From sequence record NC_048195.1: a stretch of 64,000 nt of DNA; one strand, written 5' to 3'. Positions 1 to 60,371 of this stretch are shown piece after piece. How positions within the stretch are numbered: position 1 is the first letter of the stretch; the number at the start of each line of letters is the position of its first letter. The notes below the pieces were generated by a model, which did no database searches, was not told the DNA's origin, and was given only the letters and a program-made list of their open reading frames with translations. The stretch comes from Escherichia phage vB_EcoM_WFC. The translations under genes were made by a program, and so were the position numbers.

Positions 1-68
1 ATTTTAAAAACATTTATATTAATTTTTTTCATATCCTCATACTTATGTTAATTTATATATTTAACGTA

Positions 69-131
69 TTATCCGTAAGATATAAGTAAAAACAAAGACT
101 TGCGGCAATACGGATGATACGTCATGATACG
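69..131. repeat. Iteron-like repeat units (TTATCCGTA; ACGGATGATACG-TCATGATACG) in AT-rich region
   Basis: Read directly: attatccgtaag at 69-80 and atacggatgatacgtcatgatacg at 108-131; same unit family recurs at 15969-16234. Confidence 0.5.
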
Positions 132-335
132 CTTCGACCAGCCAGCAGCGGCTAAGTCATTGATTTGCATAACAAGCGGCAAAAGGGATGGATTTCTTTT
201 ATACGTATCAAACAGTACACCACGCACCACGGTCCGCAATCCACGCAGCATTATGATTTGTGTACTTTTATAGCCATAATGAACATCAATCTGCACTTGA
301 ATATAATGTCCATCCATTGTATAATTCACACTATT

Positions 336-1543
336 AATTTGCACTATGGGATTTTGCACTATGAGTCAAGATTATGTAGCGATGCCTGAAGACTTTGAAG
401 ACCCGCGATTCGCAGAGCACAATCAGGCTTTATTCGATGAGTTCATTGACCTTGTTATTCAGGGCCATGACATGCGCGCAGCTTTTGCACTAGTATTTGG
501 AATGGAAGTTGCAACGGATAACTACACTGGCCAGCGAATCCTTTGCACGCAACGCAATCCATACTACAAGATGCGCTTCAAAAAGCGTATGGAAGAGATG
601 CCACTCAAGGATTTGTGGAGCGTAAAAGGTGCAATTCACAATTTGGTCAAGCTTGTGCGTGATCCAGAAGTCGCGGCGTCAGCCAAGCTTAATGCTATTC
701 GTGAACTGAATATCATCTACGGCATCACGATGATTGATGAAAACGGCAATAGTAAAATGGGCCGTTCCATGGACGATTTCTACAAGGATTTCGGAGAGGC
801 GGCCAAAGAAGGCGAGCAATTTTCCCGCCACTAGCCAATTTGCACTATAAAACGGCCCTAGAACACATTTTCTCCACTTCTAGGGCCATCGGTAATACGA
901 CGGGGAAGGTTGCAACCATAAACGCGTTAGAAAGTGTATTATTATAAGTCATCTTTTAGTCACTTTACGTAACAATTTACGACCTTCAACCGTCCAATCG
1001 AACGACTCCACCAGCAGATTCGCACTATAACCTAAGACGATGCGCCCTTTCTCGTTATCGACCCGCCAACAAGTCTCGAATAGCATTCGATTTGCACTAT
1101 TAACTATTGCCGCAACTCGCGTAGGATAAGCGCAATTTGCACTATGGTCGTAAAGGGATAAGGTGCGACCACTTCCGATGGACAACGTAGCGATGAGAAT
1201 AAGCGTATTCATAAGCCACCAATTTGCACTATGAAAAGCGACCCCGAAGGGCCGCCATTCGATTAGATAATCTGGAAGGTATAGGACTTGTTGCCGAACT
1301 CGAAGTTCAAGCGTCCAGCTTCTTTAAGCTTCATGCGGAAGCGAATGTGCTTGCTATCCGGTAAGCCCAGCGCGGCGAACGCTACGCGGACCGATTTGAA
1401 CTCGCCTACACCCTCGACCATAACGCCGTTACGGGTAAGACGCTTTTGCGCCACTTCCTTATTATCCCAACTTTTTGCAATGCCTTCGCTATTCGAACGG
1501 CGATGGGAAGGAGTTCCATTTTGCACTACGCAATTTGCACTAT
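336..1543. repeat. Dispersed 12-bp motif AATTTGCACTAT (about 9 copies incl. variants)
   Basis: Copies read at 336-347, 351-362, 837-848, 1018-1028 (ATTCGCACTAT), 1089-1100, 1134-1145, 1221-1232, 1518-1529 (..CACTAC), 1532-1543; two tandem pairs spaced about 14-15 bp. Confidence 0.6.
346..834 (+). CDS. Hypothetical protein (162 aa)
   Basis: Six-frame ORF; alternative in-frame ATG at 361; both starts sit directly after a GCACTAT motif copy. Confidence 0.5.
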   Translation: MGFCTMSQDYVAMPEDFEDPRFAEHNQALFDEFIDLVIQGHDMRAAFALVFGMEVATDNYTGQRILCTQRNPYYKMRFKKRMEEMPLKDLWSVKGAIHNLVKLVRDPEVAASAKLNAIRELNIIYGITMIDENGNSKMGRSMDDFYKDFGEAAKEGEQFSRH

Positions 1544-1889
1544 CGTTTAAACCGCTCTTAACGAAGGCTTCATACTCTTCGTCGGTCATCGCGTCGAGTT
1601 CTTCCTGCGTCGGCTCGGCCTTTTTAACGACCGCACGCGCCTTATGCGTTTTTACATCGCTGGACACTTCCTCGCGAGACTTCGCGTCGGGGATGGGCGA
1701 TTCGTTGGACGGCTCATCGAGCGCGTTTAAGGACTCGATTAACGCTATTACGCGAGTCTCGGCGGTCCGGCGGTCCGCAAATTTTTTAATCGGCTTCGAA
1801 CCGGAATTTGCATTATAAAATGCAACGAGGTCGGCGGTCTTAGTTGCGATAACGTCGCCGCTAGTCGAGAAACGATTTAAGCTAACCAT
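1263..1889 (-). CDS. Hypothetical protein (208 aa)
   Basis: Long ORF with protein-like composition; lies in CG-dinucleotide-rich island with distinct codon usage. Confidence 0.5.
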   Translation of the reverse strand: MVSLNRFSTSGDVIATKTADLVAFYNANSGSKPIKKFADRRTAETRVIALIESLNALDEPSNESPIPDAKSREEVSSDVKTHKARAVVKKAEPTQEELDAMTDEEYEAFVKSGLNDSANCVVQNGTPSHRRSNSEGIAKSWDNKEVAQKRLTRNGVMVEGVGEFKSVRVAFAALGLPDSKHIRFRMKLKEAGRLNFEFGNKSYTFQII

Positions 1890-1969
1890 AATGAACTCCT
1901 ATTTGTTAGGGCGCTAGGCGCGAAAGAATTTTATTAAAGCGCCGCGCACGACGCTCTAAAAATCCTCTC

Positions 1970-2284
1970 TTACTCTTCGTCATCTTCGATTAATTCGAGG
2001 GCGAAGGCGTAAGCTTTGCTATCGTAATTAACTAAAACGGCGAGTTCGAACTCGTTAATAAACGCCGTTTTACCGCATAAATTTAATTCCGCATCGACTT
2101 CGAAGAATCCGTTTTCGTCGCGCTCTAAGCGAGAAGCAGCGAGTTGCTCGATTACCGTCGCGTCGTTAATTTCTTCGCCTAAGCGAACGCCGGAGAATTT
2201 CGCGAGAATTTCGCCGTAAGTAAGCGTAACGCCCTGGACTTCGGCGGTTGCGTTTTCGAGGGTAAAGCGGGTAACGATAGCCAT
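1970..2284 (-). CDS. Hypothetical acidic protein (104 aa)
   Basis: ORF ending in acidic tail EDDEE; same island composition. Confidence 0.5.
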   Translation of the reverse strand: MAIVTRFTLENATAEVQGVTLTYGEILAKFSGVRLGEEINDATVIEQLAASRLERDENGFFEVDAELNLCGKTAFINEFELAVLVNYDSKAYAFALELIEDDEE

Positions 2285-2424
2285 AATAAACTCCTAGTTG
2301 GGAGAGGCGTTAACGACCTATTCGTTAACTCATCCCGTCCCGATATGAGTACATTATAATATAGTGTAGAAAAAAGTAAAGCACTTTTTCGATAAAAATG
2401 CGATAAATTATTTTATCTTTTTTC

Positions 2425-2452
2425 TTTACTTCTTCGTACACTCGCGTATACT
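2425..2452 (+). promoter_or_regulatory. sigma70-like promoter (TTTACT-N16-TATACT) with conserved leader
   Basis: -35 TTTACT 2425-2430, -10 TATACT 2447-2452; 19-bp block CTTTACTTCTTCGTACACT identical to copy at 2823-2841. Confidence 0.4.
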
Positions 2453-2508
2453 TGTTTATATCGAGACGGGCGATGGCCCTTTCTTCTACTAGCATCGGGA
2501 GCTTTATT

Positions 2509-2811
2509 ATGACTACTTTAATCTCTTCCATCCTTACTTACGACGAAGACCGCTTAACCGTTCGCTCTCTTATCGCCGCCGTTAACGCGGAACTAGAATC
2601 TAGCGCCATTAAGGTCCGCGCGGTCGCCTTCATCGGCCTTTCCTTCGACGATATGAAGTATGCCGAACGTAGCGCCATCCGCTTCGCGAAGACCGACGAC
2701 GAAGCCGTTACCCTTATCGAGACGGTTACGCCGCGCGGCGAAGCGTTAATTATCGTCGAGTATATCGACGTAGAAGGCGATAAATCTTATAAACATTTTA
2801 TCGCAGAATAA
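2509..2811 (+). CDS. Hypothetical protein (100 aa)
   Basis: ATG at 2509 preceded by GGGAG RBS; track ORF begins at an upstream TTG (2452). Confidence 0.55.
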   Translation: MTTLISSILTYDEDRLTVRSLIAAVNAELESSAIKVRAVAFIGLSFDDMKYAERSAIRFAKTDDEAVTLIETVTPRGEALIIVEYIDVEGDKSYKHFIAE

Positions 2812-2823
2812 CGAAAAAAGTGC

Positions 2824-2852
2824 TTTACTTCTTCGTACACTAAGACTATAAT
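2824..2852 (+). promoter_or_regulatory. sigma70-like promoter (TTTACT-N17-TATAAT) with conserved leader
   Basis: -35 TTTACT 2824-2829, -10 TATAAT 2847-2852; shares TTTATATCGAGA-GGG leader element with promoter at 2425. Confidence 0.45.
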
Positions 2853-2919
2853 GTTTTATATCGAGAGGGGATGAGGTAGCGAATAGGTCGCTACCCTCCC
2901 GACTAACTAGGAGAATATT

Positions 2920-3210
2920 ATGATTACTTTAGCCGCTATCCGTTCCGCTCGCGTCGAAACTTCCGAAAACTCTAACGTATTTGGCGAAAAACTTAAAAAC
3001 GTTTATCTTTTTAACGTAGATGCGACTATCGAGGAGCTTCATAGTCCTATCGATTTTAGCGAATTTACGGAACTCGAAGAGGAAGATATTTCTACCTTCC
3101 GCGTTACTATCGAAGGCAAGGTTTATTTTGCTACGGAGTTCGGCGGCGAATATCTCGCGGTATCCGAAGGCGAAGGCCGTTACTCTTTCTTTAAAATCGT
3201 TTCCTTATAA
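2920..3210 (+). CDS. Hypothetical protein (96 aa)
   Basis: ATG at 2920 preceded by AGGAGA RBS. Confidence 0.55.
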   Translation: MITLAAIRSARVETSENSNVFGEKLKNVYLFNVDATIEELHSPIDFSEFTELEEEDISTFRVTIEGKVYFATEFGGEYLAVSEGEGRYSFFKIVSL

Positions 3211-3229
3211 TACCCATCCGTTACTAATA

Positions 3230-3255
3230 GGCCGCGCTTAGTCGCGGCTTTTCTT
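3230..3255 (+). terminator. Rho-independent terminator
   Basis: GCCGCG stem / CGCGGC with 6-nt loop followed by TTTTCTT, directly after stop at 3210. Confidence 0.6.
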
Positions 3256-3375
3256 CGTCCCTATCTCGATGCGCTTCTCCGCGAAAACTCCTTTATCCTT
3301 CCCTTCGTCGTCGCATAATCTTCGTCGAGATGCGCCTTAGTTCGCATAACAGGTATTACGTTAAATGGAGAACAT

Positions 3376-3448
3376 CGCGTAAGTCGTTGTTTTATATAGA
3401 CACCTATATCGGACCGTTAGCGAGGGTCGCGTAAGTCGTTGTTTTATA
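3376..3448. repeat. 21-bp direct repeat CGCGTAAGTCGTTGTTTTATA x2
   Basis: Identical copies read at 3376-3396 and 3428-3448 in noncoding region. Confidence 0.6.
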
Positions 3449-3573
3449 AAGGCGCAAAACTTTCCCTTCGTTCCGAACTAAAACGAGGAATATGCCGACC
3501 CTTCGCCCGAAAATAGTACGCATGCGATATTACCGACATCTAGAATAATCCCTCCCGATATTATTACGCGCTC

Positions 3574-3636
3574 AATCATTAGCTTTCGAATCATTATGCT
3601 GCATACTATTATGCGCCAAATCATTAGCCTTCGAAT
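3574..3636. repeat. 18-bp direct repeat AATCATTAGC(T/C)TTCGAAT x2
   Basis: Copies at 3574-3591 and 3619-3636 (1 mismatch); TGTAACG also duplicated at 3637-3660. Confidence 0.55.
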
Positions 3637-3909
3637 TGTAACGCTGGAAACTGTAACGTCGATTGATTATTGCGTTCGTGTGGTTTTTAGGACATGGGTC
3701 TTTTGGTGCGTTTTGCTACTTGATGGAATTTGCAGTACACTAATCAAAATACGACACATTTGGTCCACTAACTTTTCAAAGAAAAAGTCCTAGACAGTAC
3801 CGTACTATTTTGTACCCACAGGAAATTTGCCGTACACTCCTGCGCGGCAGGCAAAATAAAGGGGCCGCACTAAGCGACCCACGATTCACGGTTAAATCAG
3901 CAACACCCA

Positions 3910-4290
3910 CTATTCACTCTTATGGGCATCACCAAAGCCATCAGCAATCTGGCTGATCAACGACTCAATGGACACGGTTTTACCAATTGATCGAGCGGTA
4001 ATAGCAAGCATATTATCAATCAAACCACGATTGACTTCACATGTTCCAGGCTTTGACTCATCTTTAGGACCACCAAAAAGCTGGTCGCGCAGACTTTCAA
4101 GAGAACGCTCAATATTTTCCAACTTCTCTTCTAAATCGGATTGGCGACGTAAAACCCACGTCAAGTCACGGTTGCCAACTTCCAATCCATCAGAATAGCA
4201 AGGTGGAGCGTCAATTTTGATGCTGGAACCAAAAGCAATGCCGCTGCCTTTAGTATATGTGTGGCTAATAGAATCATTTTTATTTGACAT
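3910..4290 (-). CDS. Hypothetical protein
   Basis: Start refined to ATG at 4290 (AAAGG RBS) inside track ORF 3910-4356. Confidence 0.45.
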   Translation of the reverse strand: MSNKNDSISHTYTKGSGIAFGSSIKIDAPPCYSDGLEVGNRDLTWVLRRQSDLEEKLENIERSLESLRDQLFGGPKDESKPGTCEVNRGLIDNMLAITARSIGKTVSIESLISQIADGFGDAHKSE

Positions 4291-4469
4291 ATCATTACCT
4301 TTAATATTTGGGTGATTAACAATAACTATAATAAAGCCGCATAGCGCGGCATTCAAATCGGTTTGTTAATTGTAACGATTGAATTTACTTATCCAACCAA
4401 TCAATAAGCGCAATCATGGCTACAACAAATACTGCACTTATTGCTAATATGATCAAAAACATCACGAAA

Positions 4470-4706
4470 TCAACGTTCATCAATCGATACCAATTGTGCA
4501 GGGTCGCCGGATACAGTTGCGCCGATGATACCCATCTGAGAGAAAAATTCTGAATAAACTTCCTTCCAGTACTTGCGCGCAGCTTTCTGGGCTTGACCTT
4601 TTCGCTTGTAGCTTTTACCTTGGAAGATGAAACGGTCGTTTGCCGCGTTATATTCCACCACACCTTCCAGCCATTGTAAGAATGCTACTGATTCATTTTG
4701 ATTCAT
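4470..4706 (-). CDS. Hypothetical protein (78 aa)
   Basis: ATG at 4706 preceded by GAGG RBS. Confidence 0.5.
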   Translation of the reverse strand: MNQNESVAFLQWLEGVVEYNAANDRFIFQGKSYKRKGQAQKAARKYWKEVYSEFFSQMGIIGATVSGDPAQLVSIDER

Positions 4707-5571: not shown

Positions 5572-7929
5572 TTATTTCGCTGCTTTCAGCGCGACTATCT
5601 CTGCCTCTAGGGATTCAACTTTTTTCATCAACTCCTGCACCACGTGCATAGTATCCAAAAGCATAGGCGTTGTGTCAAGTTCCTTTTGTTCAACAATCTC
5701 TCCTGGATCACTGCCAACATATTTACGCGTCTTAACATATAAAGGCTCAACAACCTCTGCTTGCTGTGCAATCACGCCATGCCGAACTCGATTTTGTTCG
5801 TCATTGTCATAAATGAACTCTACAAATTCCAGACCTTGGATATTAGAGTATGACTTTTCAACGCCAACAGGAGCGATGCCGTGTTTTACACGTGAGTCAG
5901 AAGTTCCATTTTTCGTATAGCTGAAGTTTCCATAATCCGTTGATCCATATATTTGACCATCAATGTCAAAAAAGTAACGGCAGAATTTTCCATTGTCTCC
6001 ACCGATAACTACACAGGCTATGCCAAATGCGTCATTACCTGGAATATACATGTGATATCCAACCTTTGTTGGGTATCCATTAGGTCTGGTGCCGCCGATA
6101 GAATATCCGCGCACCAGAAGATCTGAGCCGCTCGAAATGGCCACCCTGTCCATTCCGTTAGTTGTCAAGGTTGATGGATTGGCGTCAGTTATTCCATTCC
6201 ATGTGCCTAAAGGCGTATACATGCGGAATGGGTTGGTCTTCCCTGACTGTCGGAAGTCAACTGTGCCATCCTCATAGAATTTATAAGCGTGTTTTGAAGC
6301 GCCTTCTGACTCTATGACGGCGGCGTTAGAAGAACCCCATAAAGAACTTGAGTACAGACGTGCAAATTGTGATAGTGATGGGTTGCTGTATTTTGACTCT
6401 ACTTTGCCGCCGATAACCACAGTATCTACTGCTGGCGCGCTTGAATCTGCGTTTATCACACTCCACTGCGTATTTGCGGCAACAAATCCACCCGATGCAC
6501 GAATCACCCAAACGCCAACGAAGTTACGGCCCATGATTTCATCTGTTGCCGCGCCATAGATTGGACTTGAGCGTGATGCATCAATGTTGATTGTATTTAA
6601 ACGTCCCTCTACTGCGCCACTTCCAACGGGGATTGTGTCTCCAGCGCCTTGAGGATACAAATCGTTGTTTGTGTAAAAAGCACCTCGGACGGCTGTGCCA
6701 AAGATTTGCGCATAAGTACCTGCCGATACGCCTGCAGCTGAACCTGTTATGTTTGGTGCAGCGGATTCAAATATTTGGCCGTTCGCAGTCGAGTTGCCGC
6801 CGTCGCCACGCCCGTACAGCGCCCGTACAGAACCTGTTTGCACACCGTTCAGGTCTGGTACACGGAAAGTGGTTGTGCCGTTGCCCAAAGAATACTTTGC
6901 ACGTTTGAACTTATCAGCAAGCCAATCAGCATCTGCGATGGGAGAAAGCATTTGTGCATATGCCCAAAGTTCAGGCCAATCGGCACGGTTTAATAGTTGA
7001 CCGTCTGCAACGACTTCATACGGCTGGATGTATGAGCGACTATTTCGAAGGTGAAAATCACCTACGCCATAGTTCATAACACCGTTCATGCTTGGGCCGA
7101 CAGTGCCAGTGTTGACTAAGTTTTCCACCCAACGCTTTGTTGCGGCATCATAATCATTTACTGGGTCACCAGCCAGCGGCGTTGAGCCTTGTGGTCGGAT
7201 GTTAAGCCACGCCTGAGCATTGTCAGCAGAGCCAGTACCGCCCATAGAAGTAGGGACAATATTTTGATCAGCAACCGTTCCGAATCCAAAAGCAGACTTC
7301 ATGCCCTGAATGGTTGTTTGGCCTGTGCCACCATTTGCCACTGGGATGGTGCTTTGCGTACTGTACATTTGCACCCAGTCCGACCATAATGATGATCCGG
7401 CATTATATAACCTTTGGTATATGGCATTAATCCAATAAGGGGTGTATCTTTGAACGCAACTTTCTCCTGCAACGCCAGTTTTATAAACTTCAAGAATCCC
7501 GGCTTGCGCAACTGGATAATTCAAGGCTGTCGATGCCCCAGCATTGGCTGATTGGTGATATTGCCCGAACCAACTTCCAGTAAGCGCATTGAGATTTATT
7601 CCGTTAGGAATTTCTCCAAAATTACGCACGGTGTTGGTCAAGGTTGCAGCAGTAGTTCGAATGGAAAGCATGTCGCCAGCCGCCCATGCGCGCGCTGCAG
7701 TTCCTTCCTGTGCACGCTGCACGGTAAGGACGTTTCCGACCACGGCTGTTACGGTGACGATTTCGAATTGTAAGCCTGTTGCAGCGTCGACGATTGTCGC
7801 CACTACGCGCTCGTTTGCGCCCAAGGTCGGAAAGCCCGACCCTGAACGAATTGTGATGGTGGTGTCTGAAGTCGTGGTTGGCTGAGCCAGTGCGACCTCA
7901 AAGTTGTTTTTGAATATTAGCCTTGGCAT
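5572..7929 (-). CDS. Tail fiber protein with tail-collar-like motif and C-terminal intramolecular chaperone-like domain
   Basis: 785 aa; motifs TFRVPDLNG, YDAATKRWVE; Gly/Thr/Asn-rich repeats; C-terminal coiled coil ...VESLEAEIVALKAAK typical of S74-type chaperone; GAGGA RBS. Confidence 0.7.
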   Translation of the reverse strand: MPRLIFKNNFEVALAQPTTTSDTTITIRSGSGFPTLGANERVVATIVDAATGLQFEIVTVTAVVGNVLTVQRAQEGTAARAWAAGDMLSIRTTAATLTNTVRNFGEIPNGINLNALTGSWFGQYHQSANAGASTALNYPVAQAGILEVYKTGVAGESCVQRYTPYWINAIYQRLYNAGSSLWSDWVQMYSTQSTIPVANGGTGQTTIQGMKSAFGFGTVADQNIVPTSMGGTGSADNAQAWLNIRPQGSTPLAGDPVNDYDAATKRWVENLVNTGTVGPSMNGVMNYGVGDFHLRNSRSYIQPYEVVADGQLLNRADWPELWAYAQMLSPIADADWLADKFKRAKYSLGNGTTTFRVPDLNGVQTGSVRALYGRGDGGNSTANGQIFESAAPNITGSAAGVSAGTYAQIFGTAVRGAFYTNNDLYPQGAGDTIPVGSGAVEGRLNTINIDASRSSPIYGAATDEIMGRNFVGVWVIRASGGFVAANTQWSVINADSSAPAVDTVVIGGKVESKYSNPSLSQFARLYSSSLWGSSNAAVIESEGASKHAYKFYEDGTVDFRQSGKTNPFRMYTPLGTWNGITDANPSTLTTNGMDRVAISSGSDLLVRGYSIGGTRPNGYPTKVGYHMYIPGNDAFGIACVVIGGDNGKFCRYFFDIDGQIYGSTDYGNFSYTKNGTSDSRVKHGIAPVGVEKSYSNIQGLEFVEFIYDNDEQNRVRHGVIAQQAEVVEPLYVKTRKYVGSDPGEIVEQKELDTTPMLLDTMHVVQELMKKVESLEAEIVALKAAK

Positions 7930-32981: not shown

Positions 32982-33219
32982 AGGTGCGGACAACATCGGC
33001 GGCAACTTCTTTGGTGCTGGCGGGAAGGTTGTAAAGAATATCGAAGAAGCACGCATACTTCTTAAGCTTCGTTATCTGACGCTCACAAGTGATGGCCGCA
33101 TCGAAAGTATCAACCGCATGCTTAAGTGGATTTTCAACCGTGGAGAGGCTTGGGATTACTCTTCATCACGCTACGCATACGTGGACCGACAACACTCAAG
33201 GCGCAGTATCTTCATCTGA
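32941..33219 (+). CDS. Baseplate/tail fiber-associated protein, second segment (possibly frameshifted gene)
   Basis: 92-aa ORF overlapping both neighbours in different frames. Confidence 0.3.
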   Translation: MSTTGRLDRRDNFEGADNIGGNFFGAGGKVVKNIEEARILLKLRYLTLTSDGRIESINRMLKWIFNRGEAWDYSSSRYAYVDRQHSRRSIFI

Positions 33220-35446
33220 ATCAACAAATGGATCATTCCTTCTATACGACTGGCAGGGGTCAACTGAGATTCAGCACGATTATAAGCAGATACTTTTAAG
33301 CCATGGCAACAACGCCGGACTGACTATCAGCGGAGTGTCAGGCACCGTGTCACGGATGGCGCATCCAGATTGGTACTCATGGGGGAATGGTTCCGGCACA
33401 GGTCTTGTCGGCGGCGACACAAGACAGTATGGCGGCCCTGATTACTATGGGCAGTTGTGTGGCGATTACCCAGGTGAGGCAATAGAGAATTTTGCCAACG
33501 CAGTAAGGGTCGTCAAGACGGCTTCAAGCGGTGAGCCTGTGTATTCTTTGGCCAATAATCCAAGCGCACAGTCAATTGCCCTTCCTTCGCAGGCTGGCGT
33601 TAACGTTTGCTATAGCTTCTACATAAAGGTGCTTTCTGAAAACGTCGCTTCTGTTTCTGTTACAGAGAATAGTGATGCATCGAGTAATGGAAAGCTGTTT
33701 GACCCCGTCACTGGCCAGTTCAACTTGGACCCGTCATTGAGCTATTTCATCAAAGGTAAATTCGATGGAGTAAGAAGGGAATCAAACCGTGGTGGCATAA
33801 AAGCAATTGGCGGCGATTGGTATCGAATCTGGATTGTAGAGCAGACGGCAACCGCTGCTTCTGGAGTAAGTACCAGCTTTTCAATAGAGTTGAAGGCGAC
33901 TGCCGCTGGATCAACTCAAACTCGTGAATTGCCTGAAGGGTCTGATGCTCTTTTGTTTGGATACTCGATTTGCGTCTGCGACCCTGTTCAGAATCCAAAT
34001 GGACCTGAGCCTTATTTTTATGGAACGCAAAACCCTCCTTCTGACGGAACAGCAATCCTGTCTGTAACGGCGGGAACGCTCAATAACATCTCCTGTGCAA
34101 ACGGACCGCTGACGACAAGAAACGGTGTAGTTGGCGAGTCATTCATGCAACCTGGCTCATCACTTGCATACTCTGGCTCAATCGGTGGCTACCCGTACCC
34201 AGGGAACGCCACGCTGATTGCAGAGACTGATGGAATCAGACGCTCATGGAACGTTAGCAGGCTGGATGGAGTACCGCCGCCGCCGACCGCCGACTATTAC
34301 ATGGAATACGTCATCGGACCTTATTTCGCCAACAACCTGTCTGACAACTTTAAGACGCTAGTTGGCGACAGGAATGAAGGATTCTTGCCAGCAAATGCCG
34401 GAATACGCTGGCAGCTTTACCAAGAAGTCGCAGACTTATCTGATATCGATTTGACTGTCAACGACATAACAGACACGCGCGTAGGATTTGAAACGGAAGG
34501 TGTTGCGTGGATTAACACTGACGGTATCATTAGAGTTGGCGGCATCAACGAGTGGCCGCTGAACAACTTCAACGGTGTGATACGCCAGCTTGAATCTTTG
34601 AAAGGTGTAAACCAGGTCGTCGACGGCGCACTTGTCAACGACTATTCAATCTCAAAAGCATCAAGAGATGACTTTGGTCGTGAAATACCACGCGCGGCAA
34701 TCACTAACTATTGGCGCTACACACAGCCAAACGACGGTACATCTTTTGGCAATATCATTGAGGATGGCGCAAACACTGTCACAGCTACGCCAATCAGCGG
34801 TGTGCCCAACCAGTTCCCATCATTCAAGCTTTCCGCTACAATAGGGACTGTGCCAGCGTCCGGTTATGCACGCGCTGTACTTGCTACTAAATACACTGGC
34901 ACCCTGACTGGCCCTTTGTCATTTATCGCAATAGTCAAAAACAACACGGTTAACGGTCAAAAACTTTTTGTAACTGTACCGGATGGGATGGGTGGCTATA
35001 TCCCTAAATTCTACAACATAGGCGCAGGTGATTTGCAACGTATCGAAATTGACCTTGCCGCTGAGATTGTTGAAGGCGCTACCTGGGATGGATCAACAGG
35101 CGGCATCAGCATCGGTTTGATATCAGGGAAAGACTTGCCGACCGAAGTTGGTACGACTCTTGAACTTGATATTTTAAGCTTGATGCTTGTGTCTGGTAGT
35201 ACGATGAATGCGCTTGCAATTTCAACAAGCGAAGATTTCGCAAAGAAAACTGCGACTTCTATATACATCAAAAACCCAGGATCACTTGCCACTGGAGTTC
35301 AACTGATTGCTTCTAATGGTGATGTTGTAGCAACAGTAAACTTTCCGAGAAGTGCTGCTGGTGGTTATGTTTCAAGCATGAACATAACTGACTTAACTGG
35401 TGATTGGGCAACAACCCTTTTGTCAAAAATTAAATACATCGTGTAG
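33089..35446 (+). CDS. Tail fiber / baseplate wedge protein
   Basis: 785 aa, Gly/Ser/Thr/Asn-rich; tail-gene context; N-terminus overlaps upstream ORF by 130 nt. Confidence 0.5.
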   Translation: MMAASKVSTACLSGFSTVERLGITLHHATHTWTDNTQGAVSSSESTNGSFLLYDWQGSTEIQHDYKQILLSHGNNAGLTISGVSGTVSRMAHPDWYSWGNGSGTGLVGGDTRQYGGPDYYGQLCGDYPGEAIENFANAVRVVKTASSGEPVYSLANNPSAQSIALPSQAGVNVCYSFYIKVLSENVASVSVTENSDASSNGKLFDPVTGQFNLDPSLSYFIKGKFDGVRRESNRGGIKAIGGDWYRIWIVEQTATAASGVSTSFSIELKATAAGSTQTRELPEGSDALLFGYSICVCDPVQNPNGPEPYFYGTQNPPSDGTAILSVTAGTLNNISCANGPLTTRNGVVGESFMQPGSSLAYSGSIGGYPYPGNATLIAETDGIRRSWNVSRLDGVPPPPTADYYMEYVIGPYFANNLSDNFKTLVGDRNEGFLPANAGIRWQLYQEVADLSDIDLTVNDITDTRVGFETEGVAWINTDGIIRVGGINEWPLNNFNGVIRQLESLKGVNQVVDGALVNDYSISKASRDDFGREIPRAAITNYWRYTQPNDGTSFGNIIEDGANTVTATPISGVPNQFPSFKLSATIGTVPASGYARAVLATKYTGTLTGPLSFIAIVKNNTVNGQKLFVTVPDGMGGYIPKFYNIGAGDLQRIEIDLAAEIVEGATWDGSTGGISIGLISGKDLPTEVGTTLELDILSLMLVSGSTMNALAISTSEDFAKKTATSIYIKNPGSLATGVQLIASNGDVVATVNFPRSAAGGYVSSMNITDLTGDWATTLLSKIKYIV

Positions 35447-37926: not shown

Positions 37927-38150
37927 ACGGCTTCAACCTGGACAGGCGGCGCGGAACTTGTATCAATGTCTGGCAAGTCGAAGTAATACCCCGCCATGCC
38001 AATCACGCCAACAATCGCGGCCCGTGCCACCTTGTTGCTAATTGACTCCCCAATAAGCTTTACCAACAGGGACAAGATTTGAGACGTCAAAGCCTTTTTC
38101 AGCCTTTTGTTTTCTTCCAAATCTTTCTGCATAACTACCACCCATGTCAA
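37920..38150 (-). CDS. Small membrane protein (1 TM)
   Basis: 76 aa; hydrophobic AAIVGVIGMAGYYF. Confidence 0.4.
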   Translation of the reverse strand: MTWVVVMQKDLEENKRLKKALTSQILSLLVKLIGESISNKVARAAIVGVIGMAGYYFDLPDIDTSSAPPVQVEAVK

Positions 38151-38689
38151 CGCACATCCTGTGTCTTAACATTACCTGAAGCATCTCTTAAGGGCAGTGG
38201 ATAGTAGGCCATTTGGTAGTCTGATACGCCTTCAACATGATAAAACACGATTACGTCTTTGCTGTTGATGAGCATGTTAACGACATCTGATTTATCTTCT
38301 GGAGTGAGTATGAGTGCGCCGCCTGTCCTGCTGTCTACTGCAACAGGGTATGTCTTGTCGACAAGGCCGCTGTCCAATGTATTATACCTGACAACGATTT
38401 CAGCGGCATCAACTTTTGCAATTGACATTCCGAACACAAACGAAACGACTTGGCGACCGCGATCATTCATTACGCACATCTTTTCCTTATCAAACCTTTT
38501 CTTTATCACATCATATTTGTTCCAGCAAAATTCGAACGATTGGCCGTTGTTAAAATATCTCGTTAACACTTTGGCATTACTATTTGGCGGCGTAAACATA
38601 CTTTCAGCCGCTGCACTTTTGGTGAAGAACAAGACTGTCAGCATAGCCATGATGGTGATCAAAACAATCTTTAAAGTTTTCGATTTCAT
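38147..38689 (-). CDS. Secreted/periplasmic protein with N-terminal signal peptide
   Basis: 180 aa; MKSKTLKIVLITIMAMLTVLFFTKSAAAE signal-like N-terminus. Confidence 0.5.
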   Translation of the reverse strand: MKSKTLKIVLITIMAMLTVLFFTKSAAAESMFTPPNSNAKVLTRYFNNGQSFEFCWNKYDVIKKRFDKEKMCVMNDRGRQVVSFVFGMSIAKVDAAEIVVRYNTLDSGLVDKTYPVAVDSRTGGALILTPEDKSDVVNMLINSKDVIVFYHVEGVSDYQMAYYPLPLRDASGNVKTQDVR

Positions 38690-53990: not shown

Positions 53991-55175
53991 TTAACGCGCT
54001 TTCAAATCACGGTACACGGTCAGATTCTTCTTAGCGCGGGTGATTGCGGTGTACATCATCTTGGAGTACGGGACGCCGCGCAAGATTTCTTCCAGCACGC
54101 ACACATTATCCCACTCGCTGCCTTGCGATTTGTGCACCGTGATTACATAGCCATAGTCCATCCCGCCAACAGCGCGTTGCGCTTCTTTGCGCACTTCCTG
54201 ATCAGTAGAGAAGGAAAGAGGATTGATCTTCACCTTTATATCTTTACCATCAGTTAATGAACGCAAGTTGACATACATTATTTCATTCGACTCGTCTTCA
54301 TCCCTTTCAAAGTCCGGCACTGGTTCATAGCTAATAACAATCCCTTGCTCGCCATTACAGAATCCTGGCCCGTGCTGGTTGAAGGTGCAAATAACTTTCT
54401 CGCCGATTCCTGGCATTGGCGTTATACGTCCGCTCACTTGCCGTAATAATGAATTCCATTTATCTTTGGTGCTATTATAGGAGCAAATAATTTGATCATC
54501 TTCGCCCATGAATTTCTTCAATGCAGTAACGCGCGGCGATTCTGCCAATACTTTGACGTCATCGTATTCACGCGGAGGAAGGCGGTTGCCTTGGCGCACG
54601 AAGAAGGAGGCGCGGATTATATTGGACTCTTTCCCTTGCCGCATGATTTCGGTTAACAGCACGTCAACGGCATCTTCAGTAAAGTAGGCGGCGGCTTTTA
54701 CCGGAGGGACTTGTCCAATGTCGCCTAATGCCAGGACAGGGATGCGGTGATCAAGAAGGCGCTCTGTGTCCCACTCGCCAACCATCGACGCTTCATCGAG
54801 TACAACAAGGTGCGGCCTTTCATCCAGCTTTGACTTTCTCGAAAAGATTGGCTCATTGTCGTCATTTACGCCGCGCACGTTATAGATGAACTGGTGAAGG
54901 GTCTTAGCGCCACGACAGCCTTTTTGCTTTAATCGGCTTGCAGCCTTTCCGGTCGGCGCAATATAGATAGCGCCGTACTCACCGACACAGCGGCGCACAA
55001 TCTCACGAGCAATAGAGGTTTTACCAGTCCCTGCATAGCCAGCAATGAAAAACACACGCTTCGTCGTTTTACCGTCCTGCAATCGCTTGTACCATGCAAC
55101 GGCCTTCTCGATGGCATCGATTTGTTGCGCGTTAAACTGAATAACTGGCTCATCATTAAATTCTGGAATGTTCAT
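53991..55175 (-). CDS. Dda/RecD-like superfamily 1 DNA helicase
   Basis: 394 aa; Walker A GYAGTGKT, Walker B VVLDEASM, C-terminal VHKSQGSEWD. Confidence 0.8.
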   Translation of the reverse strand: MNIPEFNDEPVIQFNAQQIDAIEKAVAWYKRLQDGKTTKRVFFIAGYAGTGKTSIAREIVRRCVGEYGAIYIAPTGKAASRLKQKGCRGAKTLHQFIYNVRGVNDDNEPIFSRKSKLDERPHLVVLDEASMVGEWDTERLLDHRIPVLALGDIGQVPPVKAAAYFTEDAVDVLLTEIMRQGKESNIIRASFFVRQGNRLPPREYDDVKVLAESPRVTALKKFMGEDDQIICSYNSTKDKWNSLLRQVSGRITPMPGIGEKVICTFNQHGPGFCNGEQGIVISYEPVPDFERDEDESNEIMYVNLRSLTDGKDIKVKINPLSFSTDQEVRKEAQRAVGGMDYGYVITVHKSQGSEWDNVCVLEEILRGVPYSKMMYTAITRAKKNLTVYRDLKAR

Positions 55176-55501
55176 TATAACTCCACTACGCTGTCAAGGT
55201 CCAGATATACTGGAATAAAATGGCAATCTTCTTTTCGTTCAAACATCTCACCATCAACATGGCTGAAGAAAACAGTTGTGTTTGGTATCTTCCATCCTTT
55301 CTCGTCGCGCACTAAGTACGCCATGGATTCAACAGGGATGTACAGCGATACCGGATTTGCGGCAAAAATAAATTTGATTCTGTCTGGTTGACCCAGGAAT
55401 CGCATGATTGTTAGGCTTGAATTCAATCTTGTATTAAGGAAGGACTCAACGATTCCGACGTGTGTTGCACGTTCGCGTTGCTTCGTCTCTTTTTCGTTCA
55501 T
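55175..55501 (-). CDS. Hypothetical protein (108 aa)
   Basis: ORF at end of minus-strand operon. Confidence 0.45.
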   Translation of the reverse strand: MNEKETKQRERATHVGIVESFLNTRLNSSLTIMRFLGQPDRIKFIFAANPVSLYIPVESMAYLVRDEKGWKIPNTTVFFSHVDGEMFERKEDCHFIPVYLDLDSVVEL

Positions 55502-57626: not shown

Positions 57627-57917
57627 ATGAATATTGTAATTCTTTATGGTGAAAATATCAGCGATGACGACATCGAAGTTGCCGTTGATGTTTACGGTAT
57701 CGATGAGGTGAAACGTGTTGAAGAAATTAGTGGCGCAAATCTCAATGAGATTGTCAAAGAAGCTGGCTGCCCTTCGGAAGAGATTCTGGTGGTTACTAAC
57801 GATGACCTGTCTTCTATGGATCATTTGCGCCGCATCTTCACCGATTGCCAATACCTTCATGCTGTTCAATCAGTAAACAAATTGAGAAAGGCATACGCCA
57901 ACCAATTTCCTTGCTGA
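57627..57917 (+). CDS. Hypothetical protein (96 aa)
   Basis: ORF; preceded by possible 34-aa TM micro-ORF at 57526-57630. Confidence 0.45.
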   Translation: MNIVILYGENISDDDIEVAVDVYGIDEVKRVEEISGANLNEIVKEAGCPSEEILVVTNDDLSSMDHLRRIFTDCQYLHAVQSVNKLRKAYANQFPC

Positions 57918-58053: not shown

Positions 58054-59724
58054 ATGTCAATTAATAATGACAATCTTCCAGAGGATACAGGTGATGAATT
58101 TGGTGCAATCTTTGACGAAATTCAAGATGCAGGCGTTTCGGAAGAAATGCAGGCAGCAGAGCAGCAAGGCACCAGAGCTAAAATCAGCCTTCAACATAAA
58201 GCTGTTGAAAAAGATTCAGAGCGCATGGAATGCTACGGTGAAGAAGACTTGGTTGAAAGAGCACGCTTGCTCGCCTCACTTCAGGTAATCAAGTTCCCTC
58301 ACTACAAGCCTACCAAAGATGACTTCGTTCTACAGGCAGACCGGACGAGTGACATGAACCGTTATGCGGTTTTCGACGCGTTGTTTGATAAGGGAAGTGG
58401 CGTTGTTCCATTCCCTCACAAAGATACTTTTCGTGGGCGCTTAGTCGACCATCGCGGCGAAACATTCACTGACCGTACCTTGGAAGTCACAGAGATAGTT
58501 GCCGCTGTCGACGCAGCAGGGTTGTCCAACCCAAACTCACGTCAGGTCGCTCAATCCTATAAGGAATGGGCCATGCGTTATCAGCGCGACGACCTGATGG
58601 ACTTCTTCTACAAGAAGCTGCCTGAATGGGACGGTACTGCGCGCATCGAGAAATACCTTATCGAGCTATTCCGACCGTTCGATACAGAGTTAAACCGACA
58701 AATCGGTGTGTATTTTTGGCTATCGCTCTACAACCGCCTGACCAACCCTGGCTGTCAAGCGCCAATCTCCATCGCGCTCATCGGCGGCCAGAACGCAGGG
58801 AAGAGTTATTTTAGCAAGCTGCTTTGCGAAGCTATTATGAACGACCGCCACGCAACACCGATTCCGTTGAACTTAGCCGCGCAAAACTTCAACCCGTTCT
58901 TGCGAGCTATCACGGGTCGCTCGATTATCGCGAACGTCGGCGAGATGACAGGCTTTAAAAAGGCCGACATCGAAAACATGAAAGCATTCCTGACTAAGAC
59001 GGAAGATGACCTGGACTTCAAATTTGAAGATACGCAGGTTAAACCACGCCAGTGGATTGCTATCATGGACGGCAACGAATACGCAGGCATGCAGCGTGAT
59101 GACACGGGCAACCGTCGTGTGTATCCTATCTTTGTTGGCCAACTCGCTGACAAGGACGGGCAACCGAACTGGTCGAAAGACTTCCAAGCTGACCTTTCCA
59201 CTTTGAAAGAAGACGTTTGGCAGCTTATGGCTGAGTGCGCTGCGTGGATGGAGAAGCACGGCGAAGCAGGCTATAACGCGTTTGTTGGTGAAACATCTCG
59301 CATGCTTACTGAGTTCAGTAAAAACGAAATGGAACGCGCTCGCGGCGTTATCCGTGATGAGATGGTTGATAACGACCTTGTTGAAGTCGTCATCACCGCG
59401 CCTTATGACCGACATCACAGCGGACGCTGGCACATCACCAGTGGTGCTATTGCTATGGGATTCAGAGCGAAGTGCGGCAAGTCGCCTTTCTCTCGTACCC
59501 TTGCGCCACACATGTCGAAGCTTGGTTTTGAGCCTGCGACCTATCGCAACCAGCGCGGTTACTTTACGCCGCTGATTAAGAATGAAGCAGGGGAATACAT
59601 TTCTGATTTGATGACCATCTTAGCGTATCTTATCCGCGATGAGTCTGACCCTGAAGATATTGAATTCTTGAAGAAGGTTATTGAGCGTAAACGTTCTTTG
59701 GGAAGAGATAAGGATGAATTCTGA
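58054..59724 (+). CDS. Primase-associated P-loop NTPase/helicase (VirE/D5-like)
   Basis: 556 aa; Walker A GGQNAGKS; VirE-like region. Confidence 0.55.
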   Translation: MSINNDNLPEDTGDEFGAIFDEIQDAGVSEEMQAAEQQGTRAKISLQHKAVEKDSERMECYGEEDLVERARLLASLQVIKFPHYKPTKDDFVLQADRTSDMNRYAVFDALFDKGSGVVPFPHKDTFRGRLVDHRGETFTDRTLEVTEIVAAVDAAGLSNPNSRQVAQSYKEWAMRYQRDDLMDFFYKKLPEWDGTARIEKYLIELFRPFDTELNRQIGVYFWLSLYNRLTNPGCQAPISIALIGGQNAGKSYFSKLLCEAIMNDRHATPIPLNLAAQNFNPFLRAITGRSIIANVGEMTGFKKADIENMKAFLTKTEDDLDFKFEDTQVKPRQWIAIMDGNEYAGMQRDDTGNRRVYPIFVGQLADKDGQPNWSKDFQADLSTLKEDVWQLMAECAAWMEKHGEAGYNAFVGETSRMLTEFSKNEMERARGVIRDEMVDNDLVEVVITAPYDRHHSGRWHITSGAIAMGFRAKCGKSPFSRTLAPHMSKLGFEPATYRNQRGYFTPLIKNEAGEYISDLMTILAYLIRDESDPEDIEFLKKVIERKRSLGRDKDEF

Positions 59725-60371
59725 TGAATAAAGCAATCAACATCGCTAAATTCTTTCAACATCTTGGTGAACTGAACAAAGAGAGTGACGTTCACGGAGA
59801 AGAAATGAACCGGATGATTTCAACCGTGTTGCGTGGCTTTGGTTATGATAAGGACTCCATCACTTGCAAGCGCACAAAGCTTGTCGATGAGTCTTATCTT
59901 TACTACGTAGAGCTGCGCATTGGTAAAGATGTAATGATCATTGACCCTAAACTGGAAGGTGCGCACTGTTTTGGCGCTCATCCTCGTGCGAGTGAATTCA
60001 AGGGTCGCGGTCGCAACCGAATCCAGAAACTTGATGACGCAGGCGACTTGAACATTGCCATGTTCCTTAAAGAGTTCCTTGCGCTACCGAAGGTTGCATC
60101 ATCCACTGGTCGTGATGACCCTTGCAAGATTGGATTCCGAACTAAAGATTTGCGCAATGCGCTACGCAAGAAGGGATTTGTGCCTTCTTATGACAATGTC
60201 GCCGCGCTGATGGCTTCAATGGAGGAAGCTGAAGCGATGGACAAGGTGCGCGGCTATTTCCTGAATACAGGCTTCACCATGTATGAATGGCACACGAAGG
60301 GATTGACTGTCGCCGACTTCATCTATTCATTAGAGCAGAAGTATGTACGCAATATGCAGGCCACAGGATAA
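59724..60371 (+). CDS. Hypothetical protein (215 aa)
   Basis: ORF with start overlapping upstream stop. Confidence 0.45.
   Translation: MNKAINIAKFFQHLGELNKESDVHGEEMNRMISTVLRGFGYDKDSITCKRTKLVDESYLYYVELRIGKDVMIIDPKLEGAHCFGAHPRASEFKGRGRNRIQKLDDAGDLNIAMFLKEFLALPKVASSTGRDDPCKIGFRTKDLRNALRKKGFVPSYDNVAALMASMEEAEAMDKVRGYFLNTGFTMYEWHTKGLTVADFIYSLEQKYVRNMQATG

Follow-up and report, generated by a model that had tools for sequence, protein, structure and literature searches.

Near their left end, the left 64 kb of Escherichia phage vB_EcoM_WFC (WFC, a Wifcevirus; sequence record NC_048195.1), which constitute the whole stretch analysed here and will be called the window, carry a family of 12-bp sites. 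The sites lie in and around terS, the gene of the small terminase subunit (TerS), within a direct terminal repeat (DTR). They have one polarity, they occur in this zone only, they are under selection at the DNA level, they are common to two genera which make exact DTRs, and they are missing from relatives reported to use headful packaging. It is very probable that the 12-mers, which belong to the left end of the DTR, form a conserved, oriented array of putative sites for recognition by a protein, and not a transcription start signal. Because the word is kept in a distantly related phage genus, a protein that binds DNA or tracks along it would almost certainly dock at the array, and the packaging enzyme is the likeliest candidate. 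The more specific proposal, that it is a polar recognition region for TerS or the terminase, which orients packaging in the exact-DTR genera, is the reading we favour, although we hold it tentatively, as possible rather than probable; in it we infer TerS as the reader and packaging as the process served.

The motif A[A/T]TT[T/C]GCACTA[T/C] has ten good copies between positions 336 and 1543, all on the plus strand, which start at 336, 351, 482, 837, 1017, 1089, 1134, 1221, 1518 and 1532. An earlier, sequence-only reading of this DNA had counted about nine copies in 1.2 kb and had noted two tandem pairs 14-15 bp apart; the count was close, and the pairs are 336/351 (15 bp apart) and 1518/1532 (14 bp apart). 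With at most one mismatch allowed, AATTTGCACTAT is matched eight times (336, 351, 837, 1089, 1134, 1221, 1532 and 1805), always on the plus strand, against 0.70 expected and a maximum of three in 100 shuffles, thus its frequency is above the expectation from composition. The core TTTGCACTA was found nine times on the plus and zero times on the minus strand, all within 338-1543. A weight matrix derived from the array copies (cut-off at least 13 bits) gave 11 matches within 334-1818, every one on the plus strand, and none on either strand of the other 62 kb of the window, which agrees with the earlier impression that the motif is not seen elsewhere. The information profile shows a conserved length of 12 bp with about 14 bits across A-T-T-Y-Y-G-C-A-C-T-A-Y, GCACTA being almost invariant. 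Spacing is irregular and varies from 14 to 355 bp. The claim that several copies end at an ATG holds in so far as four of the ten are followed by G (giving CACTATG), but ATG 361, that of terS, is the sole annotated start codon among them (ATG 346 is an in-frame alternative), and what is seen is mostly a weak preference for G or A at +1. The array was compared in 11 Wifcevirus genomes, in Pantoea phage PA1 (L008; Kylevirus) and in the Kylevirus-like IMG/VR genome L018/L019; the further genomes compared were Pbunavirus PB1 (L009), Serratia phage Hera (L011), Xylella phage MATE2 and about 25 other IMG/VR relatives. The GCACTA anchors of WFC (341-1537) show a period of 14.8 bp (Rayleigh R = 0.89, P about 0.005). 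We rejected helical or ring phasing as unconfirmed, for this period is not reproduced in PA1 or L018 and is partly a codon-multiple effect.

Four of the ten copies are intergenic, one lies in terS, and five lie inside two minus-strand genes encoding proteins of 87 and 208 amino acids, antisense to those genes. Copy 1 (AATTTGCACTAT, 336-347), the first of a tandem pair, is located 4-15 nt 3' of the predicted terS transcription start and is invariant in the 11 Wifcevirus genomes; its neighbour, copy 2 (ATTTTGCACTAT, 351-362), overlaps the terS start codon at 361-363. Because a sigma-70-type promoter, TTGAAT-17-TATAAT (297-325, plus strand; found by consensus scan, with a second overlapping match at 280-307), lies just upstream, the pair covers about +4 to +30 of the transcript plus the start codon. 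Two weak copies, at 288 and 323, overlap this promoter. Copy 3 (CTTTTGCACTAG, 482-493) is in terS, where it encodes A-F-A-L, and copy 4 (837-848) is found 3 nt past the terS stop codon and abuts a hairpin at 854-887. The next three copies are in the 87-amino-acid gene: copy 5 (GATTCGCACTAT, 1017-1028; Y-S-A-N) comes right after the complement of a Chi site at 1008-1015, while copies 6 (1089-1100; N-S-A-N) and 7 (1134-1145; H-S-A-N) have homologous copies in PA1, that of copy 6 in the open reading frame (ORF) at L008 4099-4383. Copy 8 (1221-1232) is intergenic, flanked by the start of the 87-amino-acid gene on one side and by a minus-strand terminator hairpin (1238-1255) on the other. Copies 9 (ATTTTGCACTAC, 1518-1529) and 10 (1532-1543) lie in the 208-amino-acid gene. 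A degenerate plus-strand copy at 1805-1816 (AATTTGCATTAT) is poorly conserved among relatives and is a doubtful member of the family.

The copies embedded in genes tell on which level the motif is maintained. The 87-amino-acid protein and its PA1 homologue (33% identity, E = 6e-12) share three motif copies at homologous positions. These copies always read AGT-GCA-AAT after a NAT codon, and the residues found in the first position, H, N, Y and D, are exactly the four amino acids which have NAT codons. Because the three copies hold the homologous codons NAT-AGT-GCA-AAT, selection acts on the DNA, and the three [H/N/Y/D]-S-A-N tetrapeptides of the 87-amino-acid protein are evidently dictated by the embedded DNA word. 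In the 208-amino-acid gene the tandem pair is translated in two different frames, as V-V-Q-N (copy 9) and D-S-A-N (copy 10), and the minus-strand frame of the motif that would give TAG is never used. By this pattern the 12-mer is evidently a DNA-level element: the protein varies where the DNA permits, and the DNA is constant. Within Wifcevirus the variability of the motif columns was not significantly below that of their flanks (22/132 vs. 194/1468, P = 0.29), the genus being too uniform for such a test.

The array is situated at a physical end of the genome. WFC, WFH, SP13 and Mansfield are four independent records with an identical first base, and for this reason we take window position 1 as the left physical terminus. 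The DTR extends from 1 to 3703, its right boundary, at about 3703 in window coordinates, being known from the WFH, SP13 and Mansfield records (PhageTerm); WFC's own record has the boundary at 3784, and its DTR of 3,784 bp may be about 80 bp too long. The array lies inside the DTR, with its first copy 336 bp from the genome end, therefore there are two array copies per virion genome. The first 4 kb of the window are 91-97% identical to 27 Wifcevirus genomes, and the first 110 bp are 80% A+T. The 4.7 kb of the genome beyond the window carry, judged from relatives, small genes only.

Homologues of TerS were found in 357 phage records, Pbunavirus predominating. The eight copies between 336 and 1232 are kept in all 11 Wifcevirus genomes with sporadic single changes only, and the pair 1518/1532 is missing from two divergent ones. 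In PA1, whose TerS is 42% identical to that of WFC, 15 of 15 motif matches are on the plus strand, from the middle of terS to the stop codon of the homologue of the 208-amino-acid gene; in L018/L019 (TerS 43% identical) all 12 matches are on the plus strand, 575-1486 from the left end. Zone and polarity of the array are thus the same in Wifcevirus, PA1 and L018. Its position relative to gene starts is less constant, as Kylevirus has no full copy upstream of terS. The array is absent from PB1, MATE2, Hera and the approximately 25 other IMG/VR relatives. Wifcevirus and the Kylevirus-like genomes have exact DTRs of 3.6-3.8 kb (3,603 bp in L018), whereas for the Pbunavirus JG024 a circularly permuted genome was reported (PMC10913387). 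Present in Wifcevirus and Kylevirus-like phages and absent from Pbunavirus, for which headful packaging is reported, the array thus follows the genera that make exact long DTRs. A pattern scan of IMG/VR for independent arrays detected none in unrelated phages among the matches listed, which were due to chance or, where there were multiple copies, to coding repeats (N-S-A peptides, AT-rich phages). When oriented, lineage-specific words near terS were sought de novo in 24 relatives, nothing stood out but the Chi-like words of the Serratia phages and a tandem 16-bp repeat of L046. The repeats of L046, a distant TerS relative (39% identity), are of the CTTCAAATATTCAAAT type and lie downstream of terS in a single orientation (4527-4690 and 6270-6390).

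The right boundary of the DTR is marked by an element of its own. The sequence-only reading had proposed two 15-mers, AATTTGCAGTACACT (3727-3741) and AATTTGCCGTACACT (3824-3838), as well as the GTACACT core of promoters at 2424-2442 and 2823-2841, as kin of the 12-mer. All these sequences are present and both 15-mers are conserved in relatives, but the kinship is weak, only the halves AATTTG and CACTA being shared. The first 15-mer is contained in a plus-strand element, GGAATTTGCAGTACACTAATCAAAAT (3725-3750), which starts 21 nt outside the right DTR boundary. In L018 the element CCAATTTCACAGTACACTAATCAGAAT also begins 21 nt to the right of the boundary, and PA1 is arranged alike; in Wifcevirus and Kylevirus-like genomes this element of about 24 bp, AATTTGCAGTACACTAATCAAAAT, follows a conserved GGTACTTG (L018 3603-3660; L008 ~7130-7190). 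The second copy, AATTTGCNGTACACT (3824-3838, plus strand), 97 bp further right, is conserved in Wifcevirus and was not seen in Kylevirus. Similarity extends to the left cut sites, TAACTCC/ATTTTAAAAA in WFC and TAAATTC/ACTTAAAAAA in L018, where the slash marks the cut. The boundary element and the left cut-site sequences are probably signals for making the termini. In the boundary element the halves AATTTG and CACTA are 5-6 bp apart, and it can be read as two split halves of the 12-mer, a resemblance which is suggestive only.

The product of terS (361-834, plus strand) matches the TerS of Pseudomonas phage E217 (PDB 7UXE, E = 7.2e-34), a decamer of solved structure, to which WFC residues 3-147 can be aligned, and the gene is annotated as TerS in phage Mansfield. 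In the reading we favour, the 12-mers are cis-acting polar binding sites in the left part of the DTR, which the terminase would read via the small subunit whose gene the array surrounds. The same-direction copies, at about +340 to +1540 from the left terminus, would mark the DNA as phage DNA and would set the polarity of packaging, leading to a cut at the exact terminus and to packaging of an exact-ended, terminally repeated genome. Binding at 336-362, where the transcript start and the start codon are, could in addition throttle TerS production. The location suggests this role: the classical place of pac and cos recognition sites is in or next to the small terminase gene (lambda cosB lies next to Nu1, and pac lies inside terS in P22, SPP1 and Sf6), and the array occupies 336-1543, in and next to terS, near the terminus at position 1. 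The single polarity and single place of the array in Wifcevirus, PA1 and L018 and the DNA-level selection on the copies point in the same direction, as do the correlation of the array with packaging mode, by which the repeated elements are specific to the exact-DTR genera and absent from Pbunavirus, reported to be circularly permuted, and the recurrence of half-sites in the conserved element at the other DTR boundary. There is also a precedent for such a reader in HK97, whose ring-shaped TerS reads an asymmetric sequence as it slides along the DNA (PMC11331095).

Several observations, however, weigh against TerS as the reader. The nearest solved homologue, E217 TerS, comes from a Pbunavirus whose genome lacks the array, and it showed no appreciable DNA binding in vitro (PMC9611059). 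Ten to fifteen sites over 1.2 kb are more numerous and more widely spread than in any characterised pac or cos recognition region, and the nearest copy is 336 bp away from the cut. Serratia relatives (Myosmarvirus) do not have the 12-mer, though their records likewise begin near terS. Conservation of the sites does not track overall TerS similarity, because PA1 TerS (42% identical to WFC TerS) is no closer to it than PB1 TerS (38-41%). Finally, the array co-clusters and is co-oriented with Chi sites, suggesting that a different process takes place at the DNA end.

A canonical Chi site, GCTGGTGG, is present on the minus strand of WFC at 1008-1015, abutting the copy at 1017, and each of the 11 Wifcevirus loci that were scanned has it. 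Read on the plus strand, Chi appears as its reverse complement, CCACCAGC, which is concentrated in the array zone with the same polarity as the 12-mers. Of the eight Chi sites in the PA1 genome, seven fall in a stretch of 1.6 kb at terS, all in one polarity (L008 3361-4940), and no octamers are commoner in the array zone of PA1 than those of the 12-mer and of Chi. L018 has nine exact Chi sites in its first 2 kb (255-1972), a tenth near 4.5 kb, and near-Chi words distributed 12 to 0 between the strands. All four Chi sites of Hera fall within 1.1 kb at terS (L011 3237-4340), and the Serratia-type genome L037 has 13 near-Chi words on one strand and one on the other. PB1 does not contain a cluster of the Pseudomonas Chi, GCTGGCGC. 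By the orientation rule of Chi, RecBCD that enters at the left end meets the sites of the zone in their active polarity, and lambdoid phages are known to have oriented Chi sites clustered at a terminus (PMC12315714). Upstream of terS in PB1 (L009 2590-3460) and Hera (L011 2710-3330) the plus strand changes from G/T-rich to C/A-rich over an AT-rich centre, as one would expect of Chi-like words that face outward to either side of a terminus or junction.

The company of Chi raises the alternative that the array is itself a Chi-like polar signal, read by a helicase-nuclease or other translocase, of host or phage origin, which enters at the left terminus. The 12-mers, together with Chi, would then halt degradation inside the redundant DTR and channel the end into recombination or recombination-dependent replication with the other DTR copy. 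The 12-mer is, like Chi, an asymmetric word of one polarity, lying within 1.6 kb of the left end and co-oriented with true Chi sites, and by analogy the array has the architecture of a signal read by a moving enzyme: many irregularly spaced copies of one polarity, set in genes by codon choice, are what one sees with signals that are read at less than 100% efficiency. Oriented Chi clusters are co-located with the array in PA1 and L018, the conserved Chi of WFC adjoins a 12-mer, the exact (four) and near-Chi (13) words of Serratia phages are at the corresponding end, the polarity is right for RecBCD, and the persistence of the word across genera with protein identities of 33-50% would be in keeping with a conserved host reader. 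On the other hand, the 12-mer is unrelated to Chi, its minus-strand reading ATAGTGCAAAT having no similarity to the Chi sequence recognised by RecBCD, and string searches of the literature found no enzyme reported to read it. Moreover, the right genome end would stay unprotected, the Serratia relatives manage with Chi alone, and the IMG/VR pattern scan mentioned above yielded no unrelated phage with such an array among the matches listed. On balance we find a Chi-like signal unlikely, though less so than the other alternatives. A bolder form of the idea, which strikes us as distinctly unlikely, is that the 12-mer is a second, phage-borne Chi-type polar signal, which, jointly with the interleaved Chi sites, makes the left end a protected substrate for recombination or replication and which in Wifcevirus would largely have replaced Chi (ten copies vs. 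one Chi). Should the array indeed go with the Chi sites, it would represent a novel type of end-protection signal.

Readings connected with transcription or replication fit less of the pattern. The tandem pair at +4 to +30 of a good sigma-70 promoter, covering the terS start codon, invites the idea that the 12-mers are operators, at which a phage transcription regulator represses terS (336-362) and forms a roadblock in the zone of convergent transcription; two copies flank terminator hairpins of the leftward operon, and excess TerS was reported to lower the infectivity of E217 (PMC9611059). Yet most copies are within coding sequence and distant from promoters, none is found at the three early promoters described below, the missing upstream copy in Kylevirus means that the position relative to the promoter is not a conserved feature, and comparison of the DTR proteins with Pfam and PHROGs detected no helix-turn-helix or other DNA-binding family, the homology of TerS aside. 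An operator function is thus unlikely. Direct repeats of one polarity close to an AT-rich genome end, with a primase-helicase gene just upstream of terS in the circular map of relatives, could also be the iterons of a replication origin that bind a phage initiator, for which an ORF of 215 amino acids, restricted to Wifcevirus and Kylevirus and abutting the primase-helicase gene (58054-59724), would be at hand. Iterons are usually 17-22 bp long, regularly phased and next to an unwinding element. The array consists of 12-bp sites with irregular spacing, most of them located in genes and separated by over 200 bp from the AT-rich stretch, a direct scan of the first 4 kb gave no DnaA box, and the 215-amino-acid protein has no recognisable family and an unreliable model; we regard an origin as quite unlikely. 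As for promoters of a phage-specific RNA polymerase or sigma factor, CACTAT does resemble positions -5 to -1 of T7/SP6-type promoters, and behind some copies there are a G or A and a hairpin. The sequence-only reading had suggested one regulator or polymerase family, of which the true site family stands, with a single sequence-specific reader very likely, while the polymerase-promoter part does not. No gene for a single-subunit RNA polymerase was found: of the five ORFs of at least 700 amino acids in the window, the three that were scanned matched DNA polymerase, portal/minor head protein and lytic tail protein, and of the other two (785 amino acids each) one (5572-7929) corresponds to a gene annotated as tail fiber in Mansfield and the other (33089-35446), by its position among tail genes, presumably encodes a tail protein. 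The word is missing from the 62 kb which hold nearly all genes, six of the ten copies are in coding sequence (five of them antisense), transcription from half of the copies would be antisense and would run into convergent genes, the length of the element is 12 bp and not the approximately 23 bp (-17 to +6) placed upstream of co-oriented genes genome-wide, and no 12-mer has a sigma-70 layout (-35/-10 with a spacer of 16-18 bp). A promoter function is highly improbable. We leave the rest of the probability for something not considered here.

The sigma-70 consensus scan flagged, besides 297-325, the sites 2425-2452, 2824-2852 and 2380-2353. The first two of these, both on the plus strand, are the GTACACT promoters of the sequence-only reading; they have the form TTTACT-16/17-TATA(A/C)T with GTACACT in the spacer. 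Their kinship with the 12-mer is weak; they are ordinary sigma-70 early promoters, a class separate also from the boundary element of about 24 bp. The third, on the minus strand, has CTACACT. The three appear as paralogous early promoters of the pattern GTGCTTTACTTCTTCGTACACT-N5-TATAAT-GTTTTATATCGAG. PA1 keeps this architecture, with GTACACT in the spacer and a downstream GTTTATATCGA (L008 ~6170-6215). The conserved spacer and initial transcribed sequence suggest that an extra factor or an RNA-level role may be involved at these promoters.

To the right of terS there are three genes on the opposite strand: the 87-amino-acid gene (949-1212), whose product has a signal-peptide-like N-terminus (MNTLILIATLSIGSG), the conserved early gene for the 208-amino-acid protein (1263-1889), inside which the array ends, and a third one at 1970-2284. 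The minus-strand terminator hairpins are at 854-887 and 1238-1255, and that after terS is made of GGCCCTAGAA and TTCTAGGGCC. PB1 has three TTCTAGG words at the equivalent spot after terS (L009 ~4070-4150), and GGCC(C)AAGGACGG is common to PA1 and Hera just past the terS stop codons. The non-coding right part of the DTR contains two direct repeats: CGCGTAAGTCGTTGTTTTATA occurs twice (3376-3396 and 3428-3448), and so does AATCATTAGC(T/C)TTCGAAT (3574-3591 and 3619-3636), which is found once near the DTR boundary of the Kylevirus-like genome. Rfam covariance models gave no match at E <= 1 on either strand of positions 1-4500.

When gene content was used to look for a candidate binder, ORFs of 180, 215, 108, 96 and 95 amino acids, present in PA1 and not in PB1 or Hera, were found to have no Pfam or PHROG family. 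The ORFs which WFC and PA1 have in common, and PB1 and Hera do not, include 59724-60371 (plus), 38147-38689 (minus), 57627-57917 (plus) and 55175-55501 (minus). The 215-amino-acid ORF has no PDB relative either, and its AlphaFold2 model is unusable (mean predicted local distance difference test score, pLDDT, 52); a C-terminal helix-helix-helix-strand-strand pattern is seen in this low-confidence model. Sites of host factors were also considered and rejected: those of DnaA and IHF, which were scanned directly, do not fit, nor do the consensus sequences of the sigma-54 -12 element, the MarA box, the NtrC half-site or the T4 MotA box.

How the DNA of phages with long exact DTRs is recognised, and how both repeat boundaries are made, is poorly understood, and to our knowledge no cis site has been defined for a small terminase of the E217/PB1 type, of which the E217 protein, with its lack of appreciable DNA binding, is the only member studied. 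The comparison made here offers three cis elements that can be mutated: the array of oriented 12-mers, the conserved element which lies beyond the right repeat boundary by about 21 bp, and the left cut site, also conserved. The question of long-DTR packaging thereby becomes directly testable in a phage of E. coli for which K-12 derivatives now serve as hosts (BASEL Bas98-101).

It is useful to compare the array with systems described previously. Recognition sites of this kind include R1-R3 of lambda cosB, which are bound by gpNu1, pacL and pacR of SPP1 and the pac hexamers of P1. The array is similar to cosB and pac in that short repeated words lie in or next to the gene of the small terminase subunit and near the packaging cut, where they act in cis and give direction. 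It differs from them in having, in the WFC-type arrays, 10-15 copies over 1.2 kb instead of 1-7 copies within at most 200 bp, and in the strictly single orientation and irregular spacing of the 12-mers, many of which are in opposite-strand neighbour genes. In addition, the ends of the WFC genome are long exact DTRs and neither cohesive nor of the headful type, and binding of TerS to the array is putative. Closer in the type of genome end is T7, an exact-ended DTR phage, whose SRL and SRR, said to have been described by Dunn and Studier, are reportedly arrays of short imperfect direct repeats adjoining the terminal repeat; the T7 repeats are, however, about 7 bp long, tightly packed, non-coding, outside the terminal repeat and unrelated in sequence. 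With iterons, such as those of the lambda origin in gene O or the type I iterons of P4, the array shares direct repeats of one polarity that can sit in a gene, but it has neither their length and regular phasing nor an adjoining unwinding element.

The TerS of HK97 bound to cos (PMC11331095) offers a mechanistic reason for polar sites, namely a sliding ring that reads asymmetric DNA, although there a single minimal site is present at cos, HK97 TerS is unrelated in sequence to the E217/WFC family, and the WFC protein is known from sequence alone. The terminal Chi clusters of phage LLS (PMC12315714) resemble the array as short asymmetric words of one polarity near one genome end, and in the WFC family true Chi is interleaved with the 12-mer; in LLS, however, the Chi cluster is opposite the terminase genes, whereas the array of WFC is at the terS end, and the 12-mer is not Chi. 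A literature search with the motif string in both orientations returned unrelated primer and oligonucleotide matches only and no description of the word. The kind of element, repeated cis-acting recognition sites at a phage genome end, is already known, and among its representatives the array is unusual in its polarity, its copy number and its association with Chi.

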